Positions 1,742 to 14,557 of a DNA stretch of 26,273 nucleotides are shown in pieces. Position 1 is the stretch's first letter; each line of letters begins with the position of its first letter. Origin of the DNA: Candidatus Bathyarchaeia archaeon (lineage in GTDB: Archaea > Thermoproteota > Bathyarchaeia > Bathyarchaeales > Bathycorpusculaceae); assembly GCA_049512935.1 (NCBI GenBank), contig JBEKWR010000027.1, positions 1 to 26,273 on the forward strand, in the 5' to 3' direction. The notes under the pieces were generated by a model. The model ran no database searches, was not told where the DNA came from, and saw only the letters and a list, made by a program, of their open reading frames with translations. A program made the position numbers and the translations under genes.

Positions 1742-2161
1742 TTGTCGGATAAAAAATTGGACAAAAAAAACCAATCCAAGAAGTTCGAAGAGGTGCTGAC
1801 GGACTCGATAGACGAAGCCTTTTCAGTCTTGGGAGAACCCGTAAAAAACACAATTTACTACAGCCTGGAGCATAAATTCCTGATTACAAAACAGGCCATT
1901 CCCTTCAGAATTGAAGATTTCTCGGAGGCTCTTGAACGGATTTTCGGTTTAGGCGCCAAGCACCTTGAACTCTTAATCATGAAGAACCTGTACGTTAAAG
2001 TCAACTGTTCATACAAGTGGGAAGGCCCAGATTGGCTTGTTCCCGACTTGACTTTTAAGAAATACGTTGAACTGATAAGAATTGGCTACGAAGAGGAAGA
2101 AAGAATCGGAACCGTTGAGGTCTTAGTGGATGCAGGGGAACGACAAGAGCAACGAACGTAA
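1742..2161 (+). CDS. Conserved archaeal protein, DUF3227/NitrOD5-like, associated with signal transduction
   Basis: IDEAFSVLGEPVKNTIYYSLEHKF...IEDFSEALERIFGLGAKHLE pattern; overlaps the kinase gene. Start is uncertain (TTG at 1688, 1742 or 1757). Confidence 0.6.
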   Translation: MSDKKLDKKNQSKKFEEVLTDSIDEAFSVLGEPVKNTIYYSLEHKFLITKQAIPFRIEDFSEALERIFGLGAKHLELLIMKNLYVKVNCSYKWEGPDWLVPDLTFKKYVELIRIGYEEEERIGTVEVLVDAGERQEQRT

Positions 2162-4862
2162 TAACGCAGCCTTAGCGTTGATGGATCTTATTCCTGACCC
2201 AGTTGTAATTATTGACGCTGAAAGAAAAATTGTAGCTGCAAATAGAAATTTCGGAAAATATGCAGGCTGTACATCTGAAGAATTCGTCGGAGAAAACTTT
2301 CTTGAACTAAGCTTCTTCGGAAAAAGAGAGAGATCGATTTTACAAAAAAACCTGAAAAAGCGGCTAGACGGTTCTGTTGTTCCTGCCTACGAAGTAAAAA
2401 TTAAAACTGAAAATGGAGATTCTAAATTCTTAGAATTGCAAGGGAACAAAATCGAGTACGAGGGAAGAATCTGTGACCTTGTAATTTTTCACGATGTTAC
2501 TGAGAGGTCGAATCATCAAAAAAAGCTGAGGCAAAAGCTTCTTAAGAGCGAAGAAAAATTCAGCGGAATAACGAATTCGATAAGAGATGCTATAATCTTA
2601 GTAGACAAAGAAGCCAAGGTAACTTATTGGAATCCTGCTGCTGAAAAAACGTTTGGCTACACAAGTGAAGAAACGACTGGCAAATACTTGCATGAACTGG
2701 TTGTTCCCAAAGCAATGTGCAAGGAAGGAAAAGAGCGAATTGATGCGAGCGTAAAAATATTCGGCCAGACTGGCATGGGGTATTTCACTGTTGGGAACAT
2801 TGAAGTAATCGGATGTCGAAAGGATGGCAGCGAATTTCCCGCCCAATTAACCGTATCGCCAATAAAGTTAGGCGGAAAATGGAATGCAGTCGGCGTAGTA
2901 AAAGATATCACCCAGAGAAAAAGAGAAGAGCAGAAACTTGGAGAAGCGGAACAACGTTACCACGCGTTATTTAATCAAGCGCCGTTGGGGATTTTGATCA
3001 TTGATCCAGAAACAACCGCCTTTGTTGAATTCAACGATGTTGCCCACACGCAACTGGGTTACACCCGAGAGGAATTCAAAAAACTTACTATTCACGACAT
3101 TACGGCTGAAGAAGACAAGGATTTAGTAAGAAGACGAATGGTGGAGATTTTAAGGAACGGCGGTGGGGAATTTGAGACCAAGCATCGCACTAAGAACGGT
3201 AATATCAGAAACACGCTGATAAACGCTTTAACAATCCAGTTAGCAGGCAAAACGTTTGTCCACGGTGTTTTTCATGACATAACCGAAATGCGAACAATGC
3301 AAGATGAGTTAATGAAAAGCGAGACGCAGTACCGTCAACTGGTCGAGCATGCGCAAGAAGGCATATGGGCTTTAAACGATGACATGACCACTTTATTTGT
3401 CAATCCGCGCATTACCCAAATGTTAGGATATACACAAAGCGAAATGGTGGGCAAAAGCTTATTTGAATTTGTGAAGAAGGGCGAAACCGAGGAAGCGAAA
3501 AAATTTTTAGCGCAATTCAAGCGGGGCGTCGATGGCGCATTTGAGTATGCTTTCCCCCGCAAAGATGGAACGTATGTTAATACAAGCATAGCCGCATCGA
3601 CCATTACAGATGACAACGGACAGCTAATAGGAACTCTTGCCTTGGTGGCAGACATTACTGAACGCAAGAAAATGCAAGATGCCCTGAACCAAGAGCGGGA
3701 AATGCTTGAAAACATGGCGGCAAGCATGGACGCGGGTCTCACACTTATTGGCAGAGACTTTCATGTCCTATGGGCTAACCAACTGCTGAAACAAGTTACA
3801 GGTGGTGAGCTGGAAAACAAGCTGTGCTACTCCATTTATGACCAGTCAAACCGAATTTGCCCAGATTGCGGCGTACGAAAAGTCTTTGAAAACGGCGTCC
3901 CAGTTGATCGGCATGACTACAACTTCAAATTTAACGGACGTGACGAGTGGGTAGAGCTTATCGTTACCCCCGTGAAGGACAAGGACGGAAAAGTTGTTGC
4001 TGCACTGGAACTTGCTGTGAACATAACTGAAAGGAAGCGACTGCAAAACAAAATAGCCGACTACTCTCAGCGGCTTGAAGAACTGGTTCAAAAAAGAACT
4101 GAGCAATTAAAGCAAACGCAGGCTGAACTGGTAAAGTCTGAGCGGCTTGCAGCTATCGGTGAGTTAGCAGGCATGGTCGGGCACGACTTACGGAACCCAT
4201 TGTCTGGAATTAAGAATTCTGCGTATTTCTTGAAGAAGAAGGGATCTGGAATCTCGCCTGATCAAGCCAAGGAGATGCTTGAGATAATCGAGAAATGCGT
4301 GGATTACTCCAACAAGATAGTGAACGACCTTTTAGATTACTCAAGGGACATACTTTTAGACCTGCAAGAGTTTTCCCCGAAGCAGTTGATGCATGAATCT
4401 TTAGCTATGATTCAAGTGCCTGAAAACGTAAAAATCGTAAACAACTTGTTGAGCGACCAAAAGTTGAAGGCTGACGCTGACAAAATAAAAAGGGTTTTTG
4501 TAAACCTGATAAAGAACGCGATTGACGCAATGCCGAACGGGGGAAAGCTAACGATTGACGGCGAAGCAAGAGGCAACTTTGAAATCACTTTCACGGACAC
4601 CGGCATAGGAATCAGCGACGAAGTCTTGCCGAAACTTTTCTCCCCCTTATTTACTACTAAAGCGAAGGGGATGGGTTTCGGCTTAGCAATCTGCAAACGC
4701 ATCGTTGAAGCCCACGGTGGAACAATAGTGGTTAAAACAGTCAAGAACCAAGGAACCGCCTTTACGGTTACATTGCCTTTTGAACCAACATTTGAAACTG
4801 GAGGTGAAAAAATTTGGGTAAACATGCCAGAATCCTCATTGTCGACGACGACGAAAACATAA
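2130..4862 (+). CDS. Cytoplasmic multi-PAS sensor histidine kinase
   Basis: About five PAS/PAC repeats ending in DVTE/DITQ/DITE/DITE/NITE. H-box GHDLRNPL, N-box NLIKNAIDA, G1 DTGIGI, F-box FTTK, G2 GMGFGL. No transmembrane helix. Confidence 0.95.
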   Translation: MQGNDKSNERNNAALALMDLIPDPVVIIDAERKIVAANRNFGKYAGCTSEEFVGENFLELSFFGKRERSILQKNLKKRLDGSVVPAYEVKIKTENGDSKFLELQGNKIEYEGRICDLVIFHDVTERSNHQKKLRQKLLKSEEKFSGITNSIRDAIILVDKEAKVTYWNPAAEKTFGYTSEETTGKYLHELVVPKAMCKEGKERIDASVKIFGQTGMGYFTVGNIEVIGCRKDGSEFPAQLTVSPIKLGGKWNAVGVVKDITQRKREEQKLGEAEQRYHALFNQAPLGILIIDPETTAFVEFNDVAHTQLGYTREEFKKLTIHDITAEEDKDLVRRRMVEILRNGGGEFETKHRTKNGNIRNTLINALTIQLAGKTFVHGVFHDITEMRTMQDELMKSETQYRQLVEHAQEGIWALNDDMTTLFVNPRITQMLGYTQSEMVGKSLFEFVKKGETEEAKKFLAQFKRGVDGAFEYAFPRKDGTYVNTSIAASTITDDNGQLIGTLALVADITERKKMQDALNQEREMLENMAASMDAGLTLIGRDFHVLWANQLLKQVTGGELENKLCYSIYDQSNRICPDCGVRKVFENGVPVDRHDYNFKFNGRDEWVELIVTPVKDKDGKVVAALELAVNITERKRLQNKIADYSQRLEELVQKRTEQLKQTQAELVKSERLAAIGELAGMVGHDLRNPLSGIKNSAYFLKKKGSGISPDQAKEMLEIIEKCVDYSNKIVNDLLDYSRDILLDLQEFSPKQLMHESLAMIQVPENVKIVNNLLSDQKLKADADKIKRVFVNLIKNAIDAMPNGGKLTIDGEARGNFEITFTDTGIGISDEVLPKLFSPLFTTKAKGMGFGLAICKRIVEAHGGTIVVKTVKNQGTAFTVTLPFEPTFETGGEKIWVNMPESSLSTTTKT

Positions 4863-5735: not shown

Positions 5736-5996
5736 TTGGTTGAAGAATCAGTAATCGAGATTGGTCACATAACGCATTTCTTCTCGAAAATCGGGGTGGC
5801 AGTCGTGGAGTTAACTTCACCCTTAGCCGTCGGAGACCGCATACTCGTCAAGGGACCCTTAACGGATTTCGAGCAAACCGTCGACTCAATGCAAATAGAC
5901 CGCAAAGCCATCACACGCGCTGAAGGCGGACAAAGCATCGGGTTAAAACTGGTTCAACTCGCGAGAGAAAAAGACACGGTTTACAAGAAACTTTAA
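5736..5996 (+). CDS. Translation elongation factor-like beta-barrel protein (EF-Tu domain II / U32 C-terminal-like)
   Basis: IGHITHFFSKIGVAVVEL...VGDRI...FEQTVDSMQID...GQSIGLK...VYK. TTG start after GGGGTA chosen over the start at 5700. Confidence 0.8.
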   Translation: MVEESVIEIGHITHFFSKIGVAVVELTSPLAVGDRILVKGPLTDFEQTVDSMQIDRKAITRAEGGQSIGLKLVQLAREKDTVYKKL

Positions 5997-6018
5997 GCGG
6001 TCTTTGCCTAACGCGAGT

Positions 6019-7143
6019 TTAAGCGGCGCCAGTGGAGGCATCGACGATGCGCTTGATTTCAGCGTTCAAAGCCTCAGGCAACCCCAAAATTCCCACGTCC
6101 ATGAAGCCCCGAATTATCAGGGAGACAGCCTGATCCCTTGAGAGACGCCGAGTCATTAAGTAAGTGATTTCTTTTTCGCTGATCTTTCCAACCGCGGCTT
6201 CATGCGTTATCTCAACACCCTTCTTCCTCGCGATTAACTCGGGAATAGACTGCATGAACGATTTGTCATCCATTAGCAAGCCACGGCACTCCAGATGTCC
6301 CTTGCAATCGCTGCTGTCGCCTTCTATCATGCCGCGGATGAACATTTTGGAGCCCTCGCGAGCTATGGCGCGGCTTATCATCTCCGCCTTGCTGCCCCTT
6401 CCGCTTAGAACCGCTTTTGAGCCGATGTCCAGCTGCGAGTTCGCTTGACCGTAGAGTATGCTGTTGAAGCTTACACGTGAATCTTCACCCGTGCAGTAAC
6501 CGACTGGGTACATTTGTATATCGCGGACTGGACGCATGCAAACGTAGTTGGAGACGAAAGTTGCCCTATCATCAATTTGCGCGGCGCTTCTGGGACGGAC
6601 CAGCGTGTTTTCGCTCCACTGGTGAATCATCGTGAAGTTTAACATTGCCTCTTTCTTCACGTAGATCTCGGAAATGCCCAGGTGAGAAGCCTGAGGAACA
6701 GATGAGTGCTGAACGCAGCTGGTTATGATGTGCGATTTTGAGCCTTCCTCAGCGATGATTATGTTGTGGACCCGCTGCTCCAGATTCTTCTGCGTAATCA
6801 TCAGGCATGACTGCAATGGAAAAGTCAACTCAGCACCGGGAAGTATGCGCATGAAGTAGCCGCCGCTGTAGTCCTCCGCAACCTTCTTGGTGAACTCGTC
6901 CTTGTCCTTGCTTACAACCTTCCACATGTAATCTTGTAGCCAAGAGTACTTCTTCAACGCGGCTTTAACGTCCATAAGCTCCAGTTTGCCTTCATAAGCC
7001 TCGTTTACACTTGCAGCGACGGTTTCCTGGTTCAGGTGCATAAAGGTGCCTGCGCGGTTTCGCCCCTCTGAATCCATACCTGCTTTCTCGGCTTCTTCAA
7101 GAATCTTATGCGGAACTTTGGTCAGGTCACTTTCTCGGTTCAC
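6019..7143 (-). CDS. sufB: SufB/SufD-family Fe-S assembly scaffold (SmsB type)
   Basis: FPLQSC, QRVHNIIIAEEGS, GHLECRGL, ITHEAAVGKI, LIIRGFM motifs; overlaps sufC. Confidence 0.92.
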   Translation of the reverse strand: MNRESDLTKVPHKILEEAEKAGMDSEGRNRAGTFMHLNQETVAASVNEAYEGKLELMDVKAALKKYSWLQDYMWKVVSKDKDEFTKKVAEDYSGGYFMRILPGAELTFPLQSCLMITQKNLEQRVHNIIIAEEGSKSHIITSCVQHSSVPQASHLGISEIYVKKEAMLNFTMIHQWSENTLVRPRSAAQIDDRATFVSNYVCMRPVRDIQMYPVGYCTGEDSRVSFNSILYGQANSQLDIGSKAVLSGRGSKAEMISRAIAREGSKMFIRGMIEGDSSDCKGHLECRGLLMDDKSFMQSIPELIARKKGVEITHEAAVGKISEKEITYLMTRRLSRDQAVSLIIRGFMDVGILGLPEALNAEIKRIVDASTGAA

Positions 7144-8041: not shown

Positions 8042-9172
8042 TCACGGTATTATTTCGCAGCCGTTGTACTTGATAAAGTCAAAATCCGTCAGGCTTATCT
8101 TCCCGTTCTGGATCAGCCGCCGCATCCTTGGAATTTCAGCCTCAACATCCACCGCAAGCGCCGCCACCGTTTCGCACACTTTACCATACTGCTCGTCGCT
8201 CCACCGCTTAGTAATGTTGGCGTAAAGGCATCGTCCCCCGCAGACCCCCAAGATTTCGCAGTTCACGCATGGCGGCTGGTCAACAAAGATTCTTTTTATA
8301 GCCAGCGGGTCAGCGTCGGCGATGTTGCCCAAATAGTACTTTTTCATACCCCACATCGTCGGGCAAGGAATGATGTAGCCGTCAGTTTGAACCGCATAGT
8401 TCACCCAGCCGCCGCCGCAACGCATCAGACAATTTTTTTCCTCGTGCAAAAGCGAGTCGGCAACGCCCAGCAGAGGGTAAAGCTTCAAAACGAAGCCTTT
8501 CTCCTCCATCTGGTCAACCCAGAACCGCGCGAGCTTTTTCACTCCTGGAATGTAGCTGCTTTTTGTCCACTCCTCAAAGTTTCGTCTCTTGTAGTCGTTT
8601 CCCCAGAAACCCGCGTTCAACTGCCAATGCACCGAAGAGAAGGAAAATTCGTCGTTGTCAAGAAGCCAACGGACCTGCTTGTAGATGTCGGTATGCTCCA
8701 TAACCGTCATTCGGGCAATCAGTTCGCCTTTGAACCCGTTTCGCGTGATGAGTTTGAGGTTGTCGATGACTTTGCGAAACGTGCCTTTCCCACGGTAGTA
8801 GTCGGCTAACGCTTCTTCGCCGTCGATGGACACCAGGATCGTGTGGAAGCGGTTGACGTATTTCGGCTCCAACTTGTCAAGAAGCAGCCCGTTCGTCTGA
8901 ATCATGAAAAGCTTGGGTGAAACCTTATCCATGATCTGCTTGACCTTGTCGACGCCGAGGAGGGGTTCGCCGCCGTAAAAGGTCAAGACGCAATCAGGGT
9001 CTTTTCGGCAAAACCTGTCCAGCAACTCCACGTCATAGCTGATTTTTTTAGGAAGCGCGTATTCAACCTCTATATCGTCGCCGAAGTCCTCGTCGAAATC
9101 ATCCAAGGACTCGCCGAAACAGTAGCGACACTGCAAGTTACATTCGGTTGTCACTATCACGTGGAAGAACAT
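8042..9172 (-). CDS. Radical SAM/SPASM protein, AF0577/TIGR04084-like (putative peptide-modifying)
   Basis: CNLQCRYC, FYGGEPLL, QTNG, VSIDG, and SPASM cysteines RCGGG..IIPCP..CVNC..GVCGGRCLY..C. Confidence 0.88.
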   Translation of the reverse strand: MFFHVIVTTECNLQCRYCFGESLDDFDEDFGDDIEVEYALPKKISYDVELLDRFCRKDPDCVLTFYGGEPLLGVDKVKQIMDKVSPKLFMIQTNGLLLDKLEPKYVNRFHTILVSIDGEEALADYYRGKGTFRKVIDNLKLITRNGFKGELIARMTVMEHTDIYKQVRWLLDNDEFSFSSVHWQLNAGFWGNDYKRRNFEEWTKSSYIPGVKKLARFWVDQMEEKGFVLKLYPLLGVADSLLHEEKNCLMRCGGGWVNYAVQTDGYIIPCPTMWGMKKYYLGNIADADPLAIKRIFVDQPPCVNCEILGVCGGRCLYANITKRWSDEQYGKVCETVAALAVDVEAEIPRMRRLIQNGKISLTDFDFIKYNGCEIIP

Positions 9173-9196: not shown

Positions 9197-10534
9197 TTAA
9201 TAGTATTTTTCCGCGAGCTTGCTGGCTTTATCGTACCCTGGCGGCTTTTCAGTTTCTCCATCGTTTTCTTTGCCGCCTAACTCAACCTTCTCAGCACGTA
9301 TGATGTTTTTCTTGTCCGCTTCTTTTTTAGCCTGCTTAAGCGCCTTTTCAGCATAACTCTTCAGGTCTCTGTCCTTCAGGGTTTTTTCAGACAAAGTCTC
9401 TGGAGCATAAACTAAGGGTAAAACGGCCAAAAACAGGAAAAAACCCGTAAACGAAAACAGCGCGTACGGAGAAACACTCGAGGCCACGTAGTTACTCAAA
9501 GACAACTCTAAGAATTTTGAAATGAAAAAGGGCAATACTCCAATTGCGTAATATTTTTCACTTTTTGAATCATTACTCAGGTCGCCCCATATTAAAACAA
9601 CGAACATAACGTAGAAAATACCCCACGCTAAGCCATCTGCCACTGTGTAGAAATACCAACTGGCCATGTCTTTCGGATACAACCCTAAGACAGAGTAGCC
9701 GACTCCTATCAACACAAATCCTGCGATGGCAACGCGTTTTCGTCCCAGATAATCTATTAGAAAACCGCTAGCCACTGCGAATACTCCGATGATGGCTCCC
9801 TCCATCGTTTGTAAGATGTTGATTTGGTTGGCCCCAAGAACAGTATCCTGCACTGGAATACTGAGATAATTGACTAAACAAAACATAAGCCAAGGGATTA
9901 GGTACAGAATGAAAGATCTTTGCTTTAGAATTCCTGAAAATGAGACTTCCGTGGTTTTGGGTTTTTCAGAATTTTCAGTTGCGAATTTCTGAAAAGGCAA
10001 GGCTGCTAAACCGAATAGTCTCCAAACCACTAGAATTAGCACGGTGACCAAGATCCCACCGCTGTTGATTAAAGCCAGTAAGACGGTTCCGACGCATGTT
10101 AAAAATATTATTAAGCCACTGTACCGTCCGCGAACTTTAATTTCGGTTAGCTTTATGAAATTATTCATGCAACTTGGGATGCCTAAACCGAGGGATATTC
10201 CAAACAGCACCGCGACTAACATGGTAATGGGTATTTCAGCAAAATTCAAACTTAATAAAAACAGAGGGGATATTATTCCCAGAGCGACCCAGATTGCAAG
10301 AAAAGATTTTATTTGGATTTTTTTTACAAGCAGACTGCCTGCTACTAAAGAAATCATCACTGCAGAGAAATGAATAGCCCATATTTCCGTTTGGAGGAAG
10401 CCTGTTGCAACGCTGTTTATGGTGGTTTCTAAGAGTTTTGACGCTGAGAAATACCATATAAGGACATTGATAATTAAGAATGTGCTTTGTAGTATAAGCT
10501 TCCGATCATTTGGAAAATTTTTGGCTAAGTGCAT
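9197..10534 (-). CDS. MFS-fold membrane protein with a charged C-terminal tail
   Basis: About 12 hydrophobic helices, motif A (DYLGRKR) in the second half, PET motif after the last helix, and a Lys/Glu-rich tail. Confidence 0.88.
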   Translation of the reverse strand: MHLAKNFPNDRKLILQSTFLIINVLIWYFSASKLLETTINSVATGFLQTEIWAIHFSAVMISLVAGSLLVKKIQIKSFLAIWVALGIISPLFLLSLNFAEIPITMLVAVLFGISLGLGIPSCMNNFIKLTEIKVRGRYSGLIIFLTCVGTVLLALINSGGILVTVLILVVWRLFGLAALPFQKFATENSEKPKTTEVSFSGILKQRSFILYLIPWLMFCLVNYLSIPVQDTVLGANQINILQTMEGAIIGVFAVASGFLIDYLGRKRVAIAGFVLIGVGYSVLGLYPKDMASWYFYTVADGLAWGIFYVMFVVLIWGDLSNDSKSEKYYAIGVLPFFISKFLELSLSNYVASSVSPYALFSFTGFFLFLAVLPLVYAPETLSEKTLKDRDLKSYAEKALKQAKKEADKKNIIRAEKVELGGKENDGETEKPPGYDKASKLAEKYY

Positions 10535-10662
10535 GTTTTAACACTGTGTATTTTATCGTACGAGTTTCATGGAATAATCATTTTACCACTATTGACTTTC
10601 AGGTCAAGATAAGGTTTAAGGAGCGAAAAACTGTATTTTGGATAAGCAAACAAGCAGGCTAC

Positions 10663-10678
10663 CGCAAACCTTTTAAAG
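10663..10678 (+). promoter_or_regulatory. Archaeal BRE + TATA promoter for the short peptide gene
   Basis: CGCAAA-CC-TTTTAAAG. Predicts a transcription start near 10700, just before the GGAGG SD at 10702-10706. Confidence 0.6.
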
Positions 10679-10714
10679 AATATATGTTCAACATAAATAC
10701 AGGAGGAAAGGAGT

Positions 10715-10756
10715 ACGAAAAAGCCATTAAAGCCAATCAGAAGTTACTGGTGGTAA
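10715..10756 (+). CDS. Candidate Trp-terminated precursor peptide (M)KKPLKPIRSYWW with an ACG start
   Basis: ACG AAA AAG CCA TTA AAG CCA ATC AGA AGT TAC TGG TGG TAA. GGAGG lies 8 nt upstream, with a promoter before it and T-tracts after it. Adjacent to a ComQ-like enzyme. Confidence 0.65.
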   Translation, partial: TKKPLKPIRSYWW

Positions 10757-10766
10757 ATAAGAAACA

Positions 10767-10785
10767 TTTTCTTATCTTTTCTTTT
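10767..10785 (+). terminator. Archaeal oligo-T terminator after the peptide ORF
   Basis: TTTTCTTATCTTTTCTTTT starting 11 nt after the TAA. Confidence 0.5.
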
Positions 10786-10795
10786 ATATGTTTAG

Positions 10796-11788
10796 CTAGT
10801 TTGTTAAACCCTGTAAGGAAGACTCTAACAGGGTTACAAAATCGTGATTTTCATTAATCCATATTAAGTTTTGAATGGCGGTATTCACTGACAAACGCAT
10901 ATCGGCTGCGAGTTTTTGAACGGGCTTGGCGTTGGTAACTAAATCAAGTATTTCTTTTAGGTCGCCCTCGGTTGTTCTGGGCTTCTTGAGCAAACTCATC
11001 ACTTTTCTGGCTAATGTCTCGTCCTGGAAGGCGTACAAGATGGGAAGCGGTAAGCATTCATTCTTGAACCTATTGGTTAACTCTTCAAGCTCAAACATAT
11101 CAATAAACTCGTCTCTAACAGTCATCAAAACGCCCAACGTCTTCCCGAATTGCCTTAAACTTTCTATCTGTTCAACAGTGCCATTCCCAATTATGCCGCC
11201 CACCTGCGCTGACGCCGCCGCAATTGACACCTTCAATTCGATGAGCCCTAGATAATCTTCTGGTTTCAGATCCGAAATTCCCTTCAGGCAGGTCTCTTTT
11301 GCTTCGGCACTGCCAATATCAAAGAGCGCCTGCGTAATAAGCGTCTGAATCGCATGTTTTTTACCGCTTGGAAAAGCTTCGCACGCTTTGCTCAGCAAAT
11401 GCATGCCCTTAATCCAAAGCACGTCGCTGGCGATTATCGCGATTTCTTTTCCGAATTTTCCGAAAACTGTAGGTTTAGAATCTTTTGTTAACGAGATGTC
11501 AATTATGTCATCATGGATGTCTGCTGCTCCAGCAAGCAACGATAAAGACGCGCCAACCTCCACCGTTTCATTGGAATCTCCGCCTACAGCTTCACAAGCC
11601 ATTGAAAGAAGGGTAGGGTGGGAGGCGTCAAACCAAAACTCCATCATAAAATAACGTAATGCTTCTTGAAGCGTCTCAGACTTAAACTGCTCTTCCACAA
11701 CGGCTTGCCTGGCTAACTGCATCGCTTCTTTTGACCGTGCGATCAGGATGGCTTTTACTTGCTCCATTAATTTTTCGTCAGTTGACAT
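10796..11788 (-). CDS. Polyprenyl synthetase-family (class I isoprenoid fold) protein with degenerate motifs, ComQ-like
   Basis: FARM is intact (HDDIID). The second motif is RDEFID. GKRLRP is replaced by ASHP, RRG by KDS, and KT by KV. Confidence 0.88.
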   Translation of the reverse strand: MSTDEKLMEQVKAILIARSKEAMQLARQAVVEEQFKSETLQEALRYFMMEFWFDASHPTLLSMACEAVGGDSNETVEVGASLSLLAGAADIHDDIIDISLTKDSKPTVFGKFGKEIAIIASDVLWIKGMHLLSKACEAFPSGKKHAIQTLITQALFDIGSAEAKETCLKGISDLKPEDYLGLIELKVSIAAASAQVGGIIGNGTVEQIESLRQFGKTLGVLMTVRDEFIDMFELEELTNRFKNECLPLPILYAFQDETLARKVMSLLKKPRTTEGDLKEILDLVTNAKPVQKLAADMRLSVNTAIQNLIWINENHDFVTLLESSLQGLTN

Positions 11789-14149: not shown

Positions 14150-14557
14150 CTAGGTAGCTTCAAATATTATTTCCAGGTCTTGTTCAGCGAAGGTTATTTT
14201 GAAATGTGGAAATACGTCTGTTCTACCAAGCAGTCGTGGTACTTCGTCTGAGTCTGCGAATGCAGCTTTCACATCTAAAACTGTGCCGCCGATTTTCATT
14301 TTGATGGCATGAACGTAAGCAGGAATAAGGATTCTTCCAACCCCGATTATTGGGTGGTATTCACCTTGATTGAGGCTAAGCCCTAAAAATTCAGCGTCGC
14401 CTCTAGTGAAAAGCGATATATCTGCGCCGCTGTCAGCATAGACCTTAAAACCACGCCATTCTTTCTGTGTTGAGTAAAGAAAAATTGTTACTTTTGGCCT
14501 ATAAATTATCCTTGACCCAACAGATTCAGGTACATATCGGAAAACATACCGTGTCAA
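14150..14557 (-). CDS. Retropepsin-like aspartyl protease
   Basis: YRPKV, ADSGADIS catalytic motif and LLGRTDVF. TTG start overlaps the upstream stop (TTGA). Confidence 0.88.
   Translation of the reverse strand: MTRYVFRYVPESVGSRIIYRPKVTIFLYSTQKEWRGFKVYADSGADISLFTRGDAEFLGLSLNQGEYHPIIGVGRILIPAYVHAIKMKIGGTVLDVKAAFADSDEVPRLLGRTDVFPHFKITFAEQDLEIIFEAT

Follow-up and report, generated by a model that had tools for sequence, protein, structure and literature searches.

A conserved unannotated mini-gene beside a polyprenyl synthetase homologue in Bathyarchaeia, candidate precursor of a prenylated peptide

The window analysed here, a 26,273-nt stretch of DNA from a Candidatus Bathyarchaeia archaeon (contig JBEKWR010000027.1), contains a short transcription unit on its + strand, placed between a gene for a membrane protein of the major facilitator superfamily (MFS) and a polyprenyl-synthetase-like gene, both on the − strand. 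The unit is a genuine small gene, conserved and protein-coding though unannotated, and it belongs to a conserved family of genes of about 16 codons that gene callers miss. The term PPS-like is used below for the polyprenyl-synthetase-like gene at 10796–11788 (−) and for its homologues. We propose that the three genes form a module that works in the manner of the bacterial ComQ/ComX pair, with the PPS-like enzyme prenylating the tail of the mini-peptide and the MFS protein exporting the product. This reading, which rests on comparative analysis, is given about a one in two chance of being right.

A mini transcription unit between the MFS and PPS-like genes

The whole unit sits inside the 261-nt gap between the MFS and PPS-like genes. 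It is antisense to both neighbours, running towards the PPS-like gene (convergent) and away from the MFS gene (divergent), the latter as a first-pass annotation of this DNA had described it. Read along the + strand, the unit begins with a transcription factor B recognition element and TATA box (BRE/TATA), CGCAAACCTTTTAAAG, at 10663–10678, part of the mini-gene promoter, which aligns with the promoters of 25 other loci. A palindrome, ATATATGTT c AACATAAAT (inverted repeat I2), follows at 10680–10698, with arms at 10680–10688 and 10690–10698. It is a candidate operator, lying between the TATA box and the Shine–Dalgarno (SD) site and ahead of the predicted transcription start; in other loci its core is TGTnnnACA, which is kept across the promoter alignment. 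The SD region, GGAGGAAAGGAG, occupies 10702–10713 (+), and its first GGAGG (10702–10706) ends 8 nt ahead of an ACG codon. SD-like sequences also precede the homologous open reading frames (ORFs) in other loci.

The mini-ORF itself, (ACG)TKKPLKPIRSYWW*, consists of 13 codons and a stop at 10715–10756 (+), reading ACG AAA AAG CCA TTA AAG CCA ATC AGA AGT TAC TGG TGG TAA. Homologous ORFs lie beside other PPS-like genes, and the proposed product is a precursor peptide. Directly 3′ of the stop codon, at 10757–10785 (+), is a terminator-like element (inverted repeat I3), made up of a hairpin with perfect 8-nt arms (10757–10764 and 10768–10775) and T-tracts (10767–10785), which lie within the 39-nt gap up to the convergent PPS-like stop codon. 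Reading of the sequence placed the BRE/TATA, the GGAGG, the open frame and the T-tracts where the first-pass annotation had them. The methionine that it had written as the first residue did not survive, as the frame has no ATG, GTG or TTG and its first codon is ACG.

The unit recurs beside PPS-like genes of Bathyarchaeia

PPS-like genes were found in 110 of 201 sampled genomes of the order at E ≤ 1e-30, in 59 of 301 genomes of a class sample and in 54 of 401 genomes of a phylum sample. The resulting set comprised 127 distinct genes from genomes and 78 from metagenome contigs. For the analysis of loci, only those with at least 200 nt of downstream sequence were counted, giving 126 genome loci and 72 metagenome loci.

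A short ORF antisense to the PPS-like gene was visible by eye in the first ten intergenic regions inspected, and the recurrent unit has the same order of parts as in the window, with a TATA box, a palindrome and an SD site followed by the short ORF, of 8–23 codons. Alignment of 25 clear loci gave the promoter ACAAAGC-TTATAAG, about 6 nt, TGTnnnACA and nAATACA, then the SD site and start codon. When a profile was built from these 25 loci, with the window excluded from the seed, and run against the 2.3-Mb genome from which the window comes, there was one significant match, at 10664–10701 (+) of the window (E = 1.2e-4); the next best had E = 4.8. The same search of the genome thus found no further copy of the promoter or mini-gene.

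The frequency of the mini-ORF was measured with a strict rule fixed a priori. This required an SD-led ORF of 8–30 aa starting with ATG, GTG or TTG, antisense to the PPS-like gene, with Trp among its last four residues and its stop codon between −40 and +60 nt from the PPS-like stop. ORFs of this kind, SD-led and Trp-ending, are what the first-pass annotation had suggested looking for beside homologues, and 66 of the 126 genome loci have one, whereas 20 dinucleotide shuffles produced 3.35 on average (maximum 8) and the sense strand 4. A pipeline combining the promoter profile with an SD site recovered a mini-ORF at 72/126 genome and 66/72 metagenome loci, or 63/106 and 58/59 respectively when only MFS-linked loci were considered. 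Most of the remaining pipeline-negative loci show a mini-ORF on inspection. A relaxed motif, defined post hoc after the data had been inspected, was present at 94 of 106 MFS-linked genome loci (15.4 in shuffled sequence) and 56 of 59 MFS-linked metagenome loci (9.7 shuffled). A looser rule, accepting any basic ORF near the PPS-like stop, was satisfied by 124/126 real loci and by 107 shuffled ones; it was dropped because it had no discriminating power, and the strict and relaxed motif tests replaced it. Two of the 142 ORFs from the pipeline (L065 and L187) look miscalled; they were removed for counts based on 140 ORFs but kept among the 138 distinct peptides described below.

Several loci depart from the arrangement in the window. 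In many loci (e.g. L046, L052, L053 and L066) the TATA box has a second TGTnnnACA palindrome immediately upstream and is then flanked by two such sites, and this placement points to a dedicated DNA-binding regulator encoded outside the module. In 28 of 140 cases (e.g. L064, L060, L012 and L094) the mini-ORF and the convergent PPS-like gene overlap at their 3′ ends; the last codons of the two genes share up to 32 nt there, with both strands coding. In the second module of one genome (L035, G012:C10), on the antisense strand of the gap that follows the PPS-like gene at 5888–6769, the mini-ORF is broken by an extra base in an A run: it reads ATG AAA AAA CCC TAA and then, in another frame, ...NPKLIRSAGWPGI*. 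A sequencing error, decay of this copy or slippage could each account for the break. Finally, L138 (G050:C37) has a 29-codon ORF with a TTG start, ending ...ETFPVRWWNYIP*. It is the only leader-bearing form seen, and its MFS gene is 740 nt away.

Selection acts on the encoded peptide

Evidence that the unit is protein-coding comes from the entropy of each codon position across 133 distinct ORF sequences, anchored on a conserved Arg. At the Pro codon (Pro in 123 of the 133) entropy was 0.37, 0.33 and 1.77 bits at positions 1, 2 and 3, while the values were 1.26, 0.72 and 1.89 bits for the following I/V/T/M codon and 0.98, 0 and 1.17 bits for the Arg codon. Because of these codon-position entropies, conservation is taken to act on amino acids and not on nucleotides. 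A structured small RNA was considered as the conserved entity and rejected: predicted structure is weak, with a mean minimum free energy z-score of −0.61 (80 of 142 mini-transcripts), and Rfam matched only three tRNAs, none of them in the module.

The peptides share a common anatomy: they open with a polybasic head, continue with Pro-(I/V/M)-Arg and close with a short variable tail that is aromatic and in most cases contains Trp. The 138 distinct peptides are 7–23 residues long (median 16), carry a mean net charge of +5.07 and start with ATG (104), TTG (21), GTG (9) or ACG (4). Trp is found within the last four residues of 107 of them, and Trp, Tyr or Phe within the last six residues of 131. 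A conserved head joined to a variable tail is the usual anatomy of precursors of peptides that are ribosomally synthesized and modified post-translationally (RiPPs), for which tandem precursor copies are also common. Of the generic RiPP traits, adjacency of precursor and enzyme, the conserved head with variable tail and, in some loci, tandem copies were all seen here.

The start codon of the window copy

The frame in the window opens after a TAA and reads IQEERSTKKPLKPIRSYWW*. Among the 138 distinct peptides, an ACG first codon is confined to the window and three other loci (L004, L005 and L006, the first two close kin), whose PPS-like proteins are 55–58% identical to that of the window. The ACG copies share the 13-codon frame, and they differ by synonymous or conservative changes (CCA/CCT, ATC/ATT, AAG/AGG), while the flanking intergenic DNA past the stop codon is unalignable among them. 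A start further upstream is precluded, since in L006 the frame ahead of the ORF is shifted by a 1-nt indel located just before it. Among metagenomic relatives the nearest is L142 (54% identity), in which the same SD site leads into GTG and the ORF is (M)QKPVRPIRMIWW. The mini-ORF of the window is predicted to initiate at ACG.

The three genes travel together, also in a second archaeal class

In 106/126 genome loci and 59/72 metagenome loci the PPS-like gene is followed on its own strand by an MFS-like gene, the MFS match starting a median of 235 nt past the PPS-like stop. All eight loci that were examined over an extended region likewise have the MFS gene after the PPS-like gene.

In the phylum sample, PPS-like genes were also found in another family-level group, Candidatus Methanosuratincola (class Methanomethylicia, same phylum), where 19 of 32 genomes were positive. 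The Methanosuratincola enzyme is 34% identical to that of the window and has W-x-D in place of GKR, together with DDIVD, RDDIND and E-S-LPLP. Ten loci from outside the class were examined; six of them, from Methanosuratincola, have a mini-ORF. In L221 the peptide MKNYNPTPVRLWVPG is encoded twice in tandem, tandem pairs are likewise present in L222, L223 and L227, and L228 and L229 have single copies. An MFS-like gene is downstream in five of the ten, and these are five of the six mini-ORF loci, the sixth of which ends at a contig edge.

Absences follow the same pattern. Both the MFS gene and the mini-ORF are missing from four GC-rich loci of other groups (L224–L226 and L230), and likewise from PPS-like loci in another order of the class (L082–L084). 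Of four related genomes that lack a PPS-like gene, three have no MFS homologue, and the fourth keeps the MFS gene, beside a radical S-adenosylmethionine (SAM) gene, with no mini-ORF in front of it. On this pattern the three genes are taken to travel together.

Some variation was seen in the PPS-like gene itself. In some loci two tandem PPS-like genes stand ahead of a single mini-ORF and MFS gene, and metagenomic relatives of about 500 aa (P0064, P0077 and P0099) consist of half a PPS-like domain fused to a whole one, with no new domain; L008/L037 (G030:C13), L054, L195, L203, L208, L209 and L216 are among the loci showing such doubling or fusion. This suggests duplication, and perhaps hetero-oligomers. 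A 329-aa protein encoded upstream of the Methanosuratincola PPS-like gene was considered as a second PPS-like enzyme and rejected (hhalign probability 0.2). In three loci without an MFS gene (L016, L069 and L111), the usual place of the mini-gene is taken by a shared conserved stretch of about 60 nt, beginning ...GAGAGCTTA(A/G)CCAAGCTT..., which had no Rfam match at gathering thresholds. In L016 and L111 it has tRNAs close by, and it could be a repeat or an RNA not yet catalogued.

The PPS-like enzyme has lost its IPP-site motifs

The PPS-like protein of the window (330 aa) is the proposed peptide prenyltransferase. It scores 75.2 bits against PF00348 (cut-off 27), and its named relatives come from metagenome-assembled genomes of Bathyarchaeota/Bathyarchaeia. 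The source genome (2.3 Mb in 49 contigs) has two PF00348 genes, this weak match and a canonical paralogue on another contig (217 bits; C1:16132–17088). No NCBIfam equivalog cut-off was reached by the window protein, the best score being 101 bits against a required 468, and none of the 15 NCBIfam families that it matched was a ComQ model. Its AlphaFold2 model (mean predicted local distance difference test score 94.2) has the all-alpha fold of a trans-isoprenyl diphosphate synthase (trans-IDS), and the top Foldseek matches were of this type, with template modelling (TM) scores of up to 0.85. The best match by both sequence and structure was PDB 1wy0, an archaeal geranylgeranyl diphosphate (GGPP) synthase (E = 1.2e-22, TM 0.85). 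The second-best PDB match by sequence was the indole prenyltransferase Ord1 (PDB 9V4G-J; E = 2e-17), a member of the same superfamily.

Comparison with 1wy0 and with the canonical paralogue showed which residues have changed. The paralogue has GGKRWRP, DDIEDASELRRGKP, GQAMD, KTG, FQMQDDILD and GKRT, where the window protein has, at the aligned places, FDAS--HP, DDIIDISLTKDSKP, SAEAKE, KVS, MTVRDEFID and NECL. Its first acidic motif is kept, as DDIID, and the second reads RDEFID, but it lacks GKRxR(P), RRG, KT(G), FQ and GKxT. The two alignments agree in this, and because of this motif comparison the earlier claim about the enzyme, that the DDxxD motif for the allylic diphosphate is kept and the residues that bind isopentenyl diphosphate (IPP) are lost, is correct.

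The pattern extends to the 205 members of the family. D93, D94 and D97 are invariant (205/205), and K102 (204), T107 (205), D230 (202) and R240 (203) are nearly so. The second motif is [DE][DE]xxD, with D (125), E (52) or N (19) at position 226 and E (107) or D (98) at position 227; ahead of it, position 222 is M, I or L and position 223 T, I or S. Other conserved residues are specific to the family, namely W52 (165), D54 (142), H57 or R57 (177), E165 (202) and the segment E244-C-L-P-L-P, and the GKRxR site has been replaced by W52-x-D54-x-x-H/R57. Replacement of the IPP site by the conserved W52/D54 and E244-C-L-P-L-P implies a new acceptor. The exchange of basic IPP-site residues for conserved Trp and acidic ones would suit an enzyme still able to ionise an allylic diphosphate but with a different, possibly cationic, acceptor.

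Neighbouring genes in the window

The MFS-fold protein (445 aa; 9197–10534, −) is the proposed exporter or flippase. It scores 50.7 bits against PF07690 (cut-off 33.4), and a structure search of the Atlas returned clusters of the 12-helix MFS fold (TM 0.70–0.84). It is part of a head-to-tail series on the − strand that runs through SufB, SufC, a radical SAM/SPASM gene (8042–9172), the MFS gene and the PPS-like gene.

The radical SAM/SPASM gene (TIGR04084, 303.8 bits) is directly downstream of the MFS gene and was considered as a peptide maturase. It was rejected in this role, since it adjoins the module in only five of the eight extended loci, all from one genus. Two genomes that have no PPS-like gene also carry it, G040 and G026 have it at another place in the genome, and no copy was found in G030, where the module is present. 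As it occurs independently of the module, it is not regarded as part of it. Among related loci its product is 77–82% identical, against 40–58% for the PPS-like protein and 30–56% for the MFS protein, so the module diverges much faster. Such fast divergence is reminiscent of the polymorphism of comQXP. A multi-PAS histidine kinase (2130–4862, +) and a small retropepsin-like aspartyl protease (14150–14557, −) are encoded nearby, at most a few kb from the module. As a ComP-like receptor the kinase was considered and rejected, since it is not conserved, with no counterpart in any of the eight extended loci.

Discussion

Our preferred explanation of the module can be put as a sequence of steps. The module would consist of a PPS-like enzyme without an IPP site, a separately promoted mini-gene on the opposite strand and an MFS protein. 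Using its two acidic motifs together with Mg2+, the enzyme would bind an allylic prenyl diphosphate, and would accept the tail of the peptide in place of IPP, recognising it through the basic/Pro-x-Arg segment. The prenyl group would then be transferred to an aromatic residue, usually Trp, and the MFS protein would export or flip the resulting cationic lipopeptide, which would serve as a signal or as a membrane-active compound. The role of the peptide as substrate of the enzyme, the chemistry, the export and the function of the palindrome as an operator are what we infer from the comparisons above.

ComX is about 55 aa long. The PPS-like enzymes resemble ComQ in having the IDS fold and DDxxD; ComQ does not carry out IPP condensation, as is predicted for the PPS-like enzymes too, and is likewise encoded beside a peptide with Trp near its C-terminus. 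The differences are also clear. Here the host is an archaeon, an MFS gene is the constant partner, and the peptide is encoded on the opposite strand, from a promoter of its own. The precursor is only 7–23 aa long with no long leader, and its Trp is not universal. The second motif of the enzyme is [DE][DE]xxD instead of NDxxx and has no Gln upstream of it, and no histidine kinase (0/8 extended loci) or response regulator is linked to the module. The proposal of a ComQ/ComX-like system made in the first-pass annotation therefore stands in part: the trans-IDS fold, the DDxxD motif and the adjacent Trp-tailed peptide support it, while the second motif, the Gln, the leader and the kinase do not. 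On this comparison the locus may work like ComQ/ComX, yet its features do not qualify it as a member of the ComQ/ComX family.

Other characterised systems are similarly close in some respects only. ComQ, PalQ, ChrPC and StheQ are described as IDS-fold enzymes that prenylate Trp in peptides encoded next door, and bacteria are the only organisms from which such peptide prenylation is known; according to a 2026 review, every member characterised acts on Trp and has a Gln ahead of a second motif that is degenerate, and the StheQ preprint (bioRxiv 10.64898/2026.08.29.745113) gives a pseudo-second motif NDxxx and no second metal site. PalQ/PalX of Paenibacillus alvei and StheQ/StheX of Sphaerobacter thermophilus, compared here by description only, are like the present module in being IDS-superfamily enzymes found by gene adjacency, and the Trp that they modify is the last or the penultimate residue. 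In the PalX core, DNVRRFFW, Arg is again followed by aromatic residues, the last of them a terminal Trp. Unlike the archaeal mini-peptides, however, PalX has a leader of the nitrile hydratase type (NHLP), with its core after T72, and StheX is 69 aa long; both systems are bacterial, and PalQ is encoded beside a histidine kinase.

Ord1, an all-alpha enzyme of Streptomyces, has the same fold as the window protein; both lack GKRxRP, contain hDDIID and have an Arg ahead of the second acidic motif. Ord1 differs in acting on free indole, in keeping RR after the first motif, and in having Tyr215/Gln216, a pseudo-second Asp-rich motif (pseudo-SARM) DDxxA and no second metal, where the window family has M/T and a full acidic motif. 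The canonical GGPP synthases (1wy0 and the paralogue in the same genome) have the same fold and first Asp-rich motif, but they have GGKRWRP, RRG, KTG, FQ and GKRT, all of which are gone in the window protein.

The first-pass annotation had known of no archaeal equivalent, and our literature searches likewise found none. A term search of a survey of archaeal RiPPs (PMC12144867) gave no mention of prenyl, polyprenyl, tryptophan, ComQ or Bathyarchae; the Supplementary Data 1 of that survey, on archaeal biosynthetic gene clusters, could list such loci under 'terpene'.

Several observations weigh against prenylation of the peptide by the PPS-like enzyme. On the side of the peptide, 31 of the 138 distinct peptides have no Trp in their last four residues (...KPMRLYGI is one Trp-less tail), and some tails have no aromatic residue at all (...KPMRLRAI, ...KPLRILAV and ...VPVRVLP). 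The presence or absence of Trp switches at least 11 times on the 140-tip tree of the enzyme, where shuffled labels gave about 25 in the ten values listed. On the side of the enzyme, the acidic second motif is kept and the pseudo-SARM (NDxxx) of the characterised Trp prenyltransferases is absent, as is the upstream Gln; position 223 is T (69), I (57), S (18), N (14) or A (14), with Gln outside these five commonest residues. The fold search also ranked ordinary GGPP synthases above Ord1, which came 7th to 8th, though with the highest identity (24%). Finally, the ORF of the window itself has no canonical start codon, and the convergent, sometimes overlapping, layout would also suit an antisense regulatory role.

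Some of these observations would be accounted for if the peptide were not modified at all, and acted instead as a membrane-active cationic peptide or, as a small partner or regulator, on the MFS protein or the enzyme, with the enzyme making a non-peptide isoprenoid that the MFS protein moves. Arg/Trp-rich antimicrobial peptides resemble the mini-peptides in charge and in their aromatic tails. Both acidic motifs are kept, as in enzymes that merely ionise a prenyl diphosphate, and the tails without a nucleophilic aromatic residue would need no special explanation. We nevertheless consider this explanation unlikely, if deserving of serious attention, for it leaves the strict three-way linkage, and the disappearance of the mini-ORF along with the PPS-like gene, without a cause. 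The conserved head with variable tail and the tandem copies fit a precursor better, and the conserved residues in place of the IPP site imply a new acceptor.

An improbable explanation is that the mini-unit is regulatory, an antisense transcript or an arrest-type leader peptide that controls the PPS-like and MFS genes, with the peptide having no function as a product. Leader peptides containing Trp exist, as in trpL and TnaC. The unit is convergent with the PPS-like gene, which 28 of 140 mini-ORFs overlap, and its strongly conserved promoter has a palindromic, operator-like site. Against this, there is no gene downstream in the direction of the mini-ORF, and in the window the hairpin and T-tracts come directly after the stop codon. 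Selection on amino acids across two classes, the tandem ORFs, the weak RNA structure and the lack of any Rfam match within the module also argue against a role for the transcript alone.

Least probable is that the window copy and those of L004–L006 are decaying relics, their start lost (ATG or GTG to ACG) and untranslated here while the family functions elsewhere: there is no in-frame ATG, GTG or TTG, ACG starts are found in only 4 of 138 peptides and the nearest relative L142 has GTG, but three deeply diverged lineages keep the 13-codon frame with only synonymous or conservative changes amid unalignable flanks, the indel in L006 shifts the upstream frame, and the SD site and promoter of the window copy are intact.

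If prenylation of the mini-peptide is accepted, a broader proposal follows, which we put forward only tentatively and with some doubt: Bathyarchaeia and Methanomethylicia may make a new class of ribosomal mini-lipopeptides, built on precursors of 8–23 residues, lipidated on the aromatic tail by a repurposed IDS paralogue, exported by a dedicated MFS protein and acting as diffusible pheromones or membrane agents, with the lineage of the window starting its peptide at ACG. If true, the precursor would be among the shortest proposed for any RiPP, and peptide lipidation would gain a set of very short natural substrates. A lipid-synthesis enzyme would also have become a peptide-modifying one by a new route, given that the second Asp-rich motif is retained and the Gln absent. 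The conserved ACG start in one lineage would be a test case for non-canonical initiation in archaea. Methanosuratincola strains have been cultured, which would make the hypothesis directly testable. With this product archaea would have their first prenylated peptide, and it would be a candidate peptide signal of lineages that abound in sediments and have mostly not been cultured.

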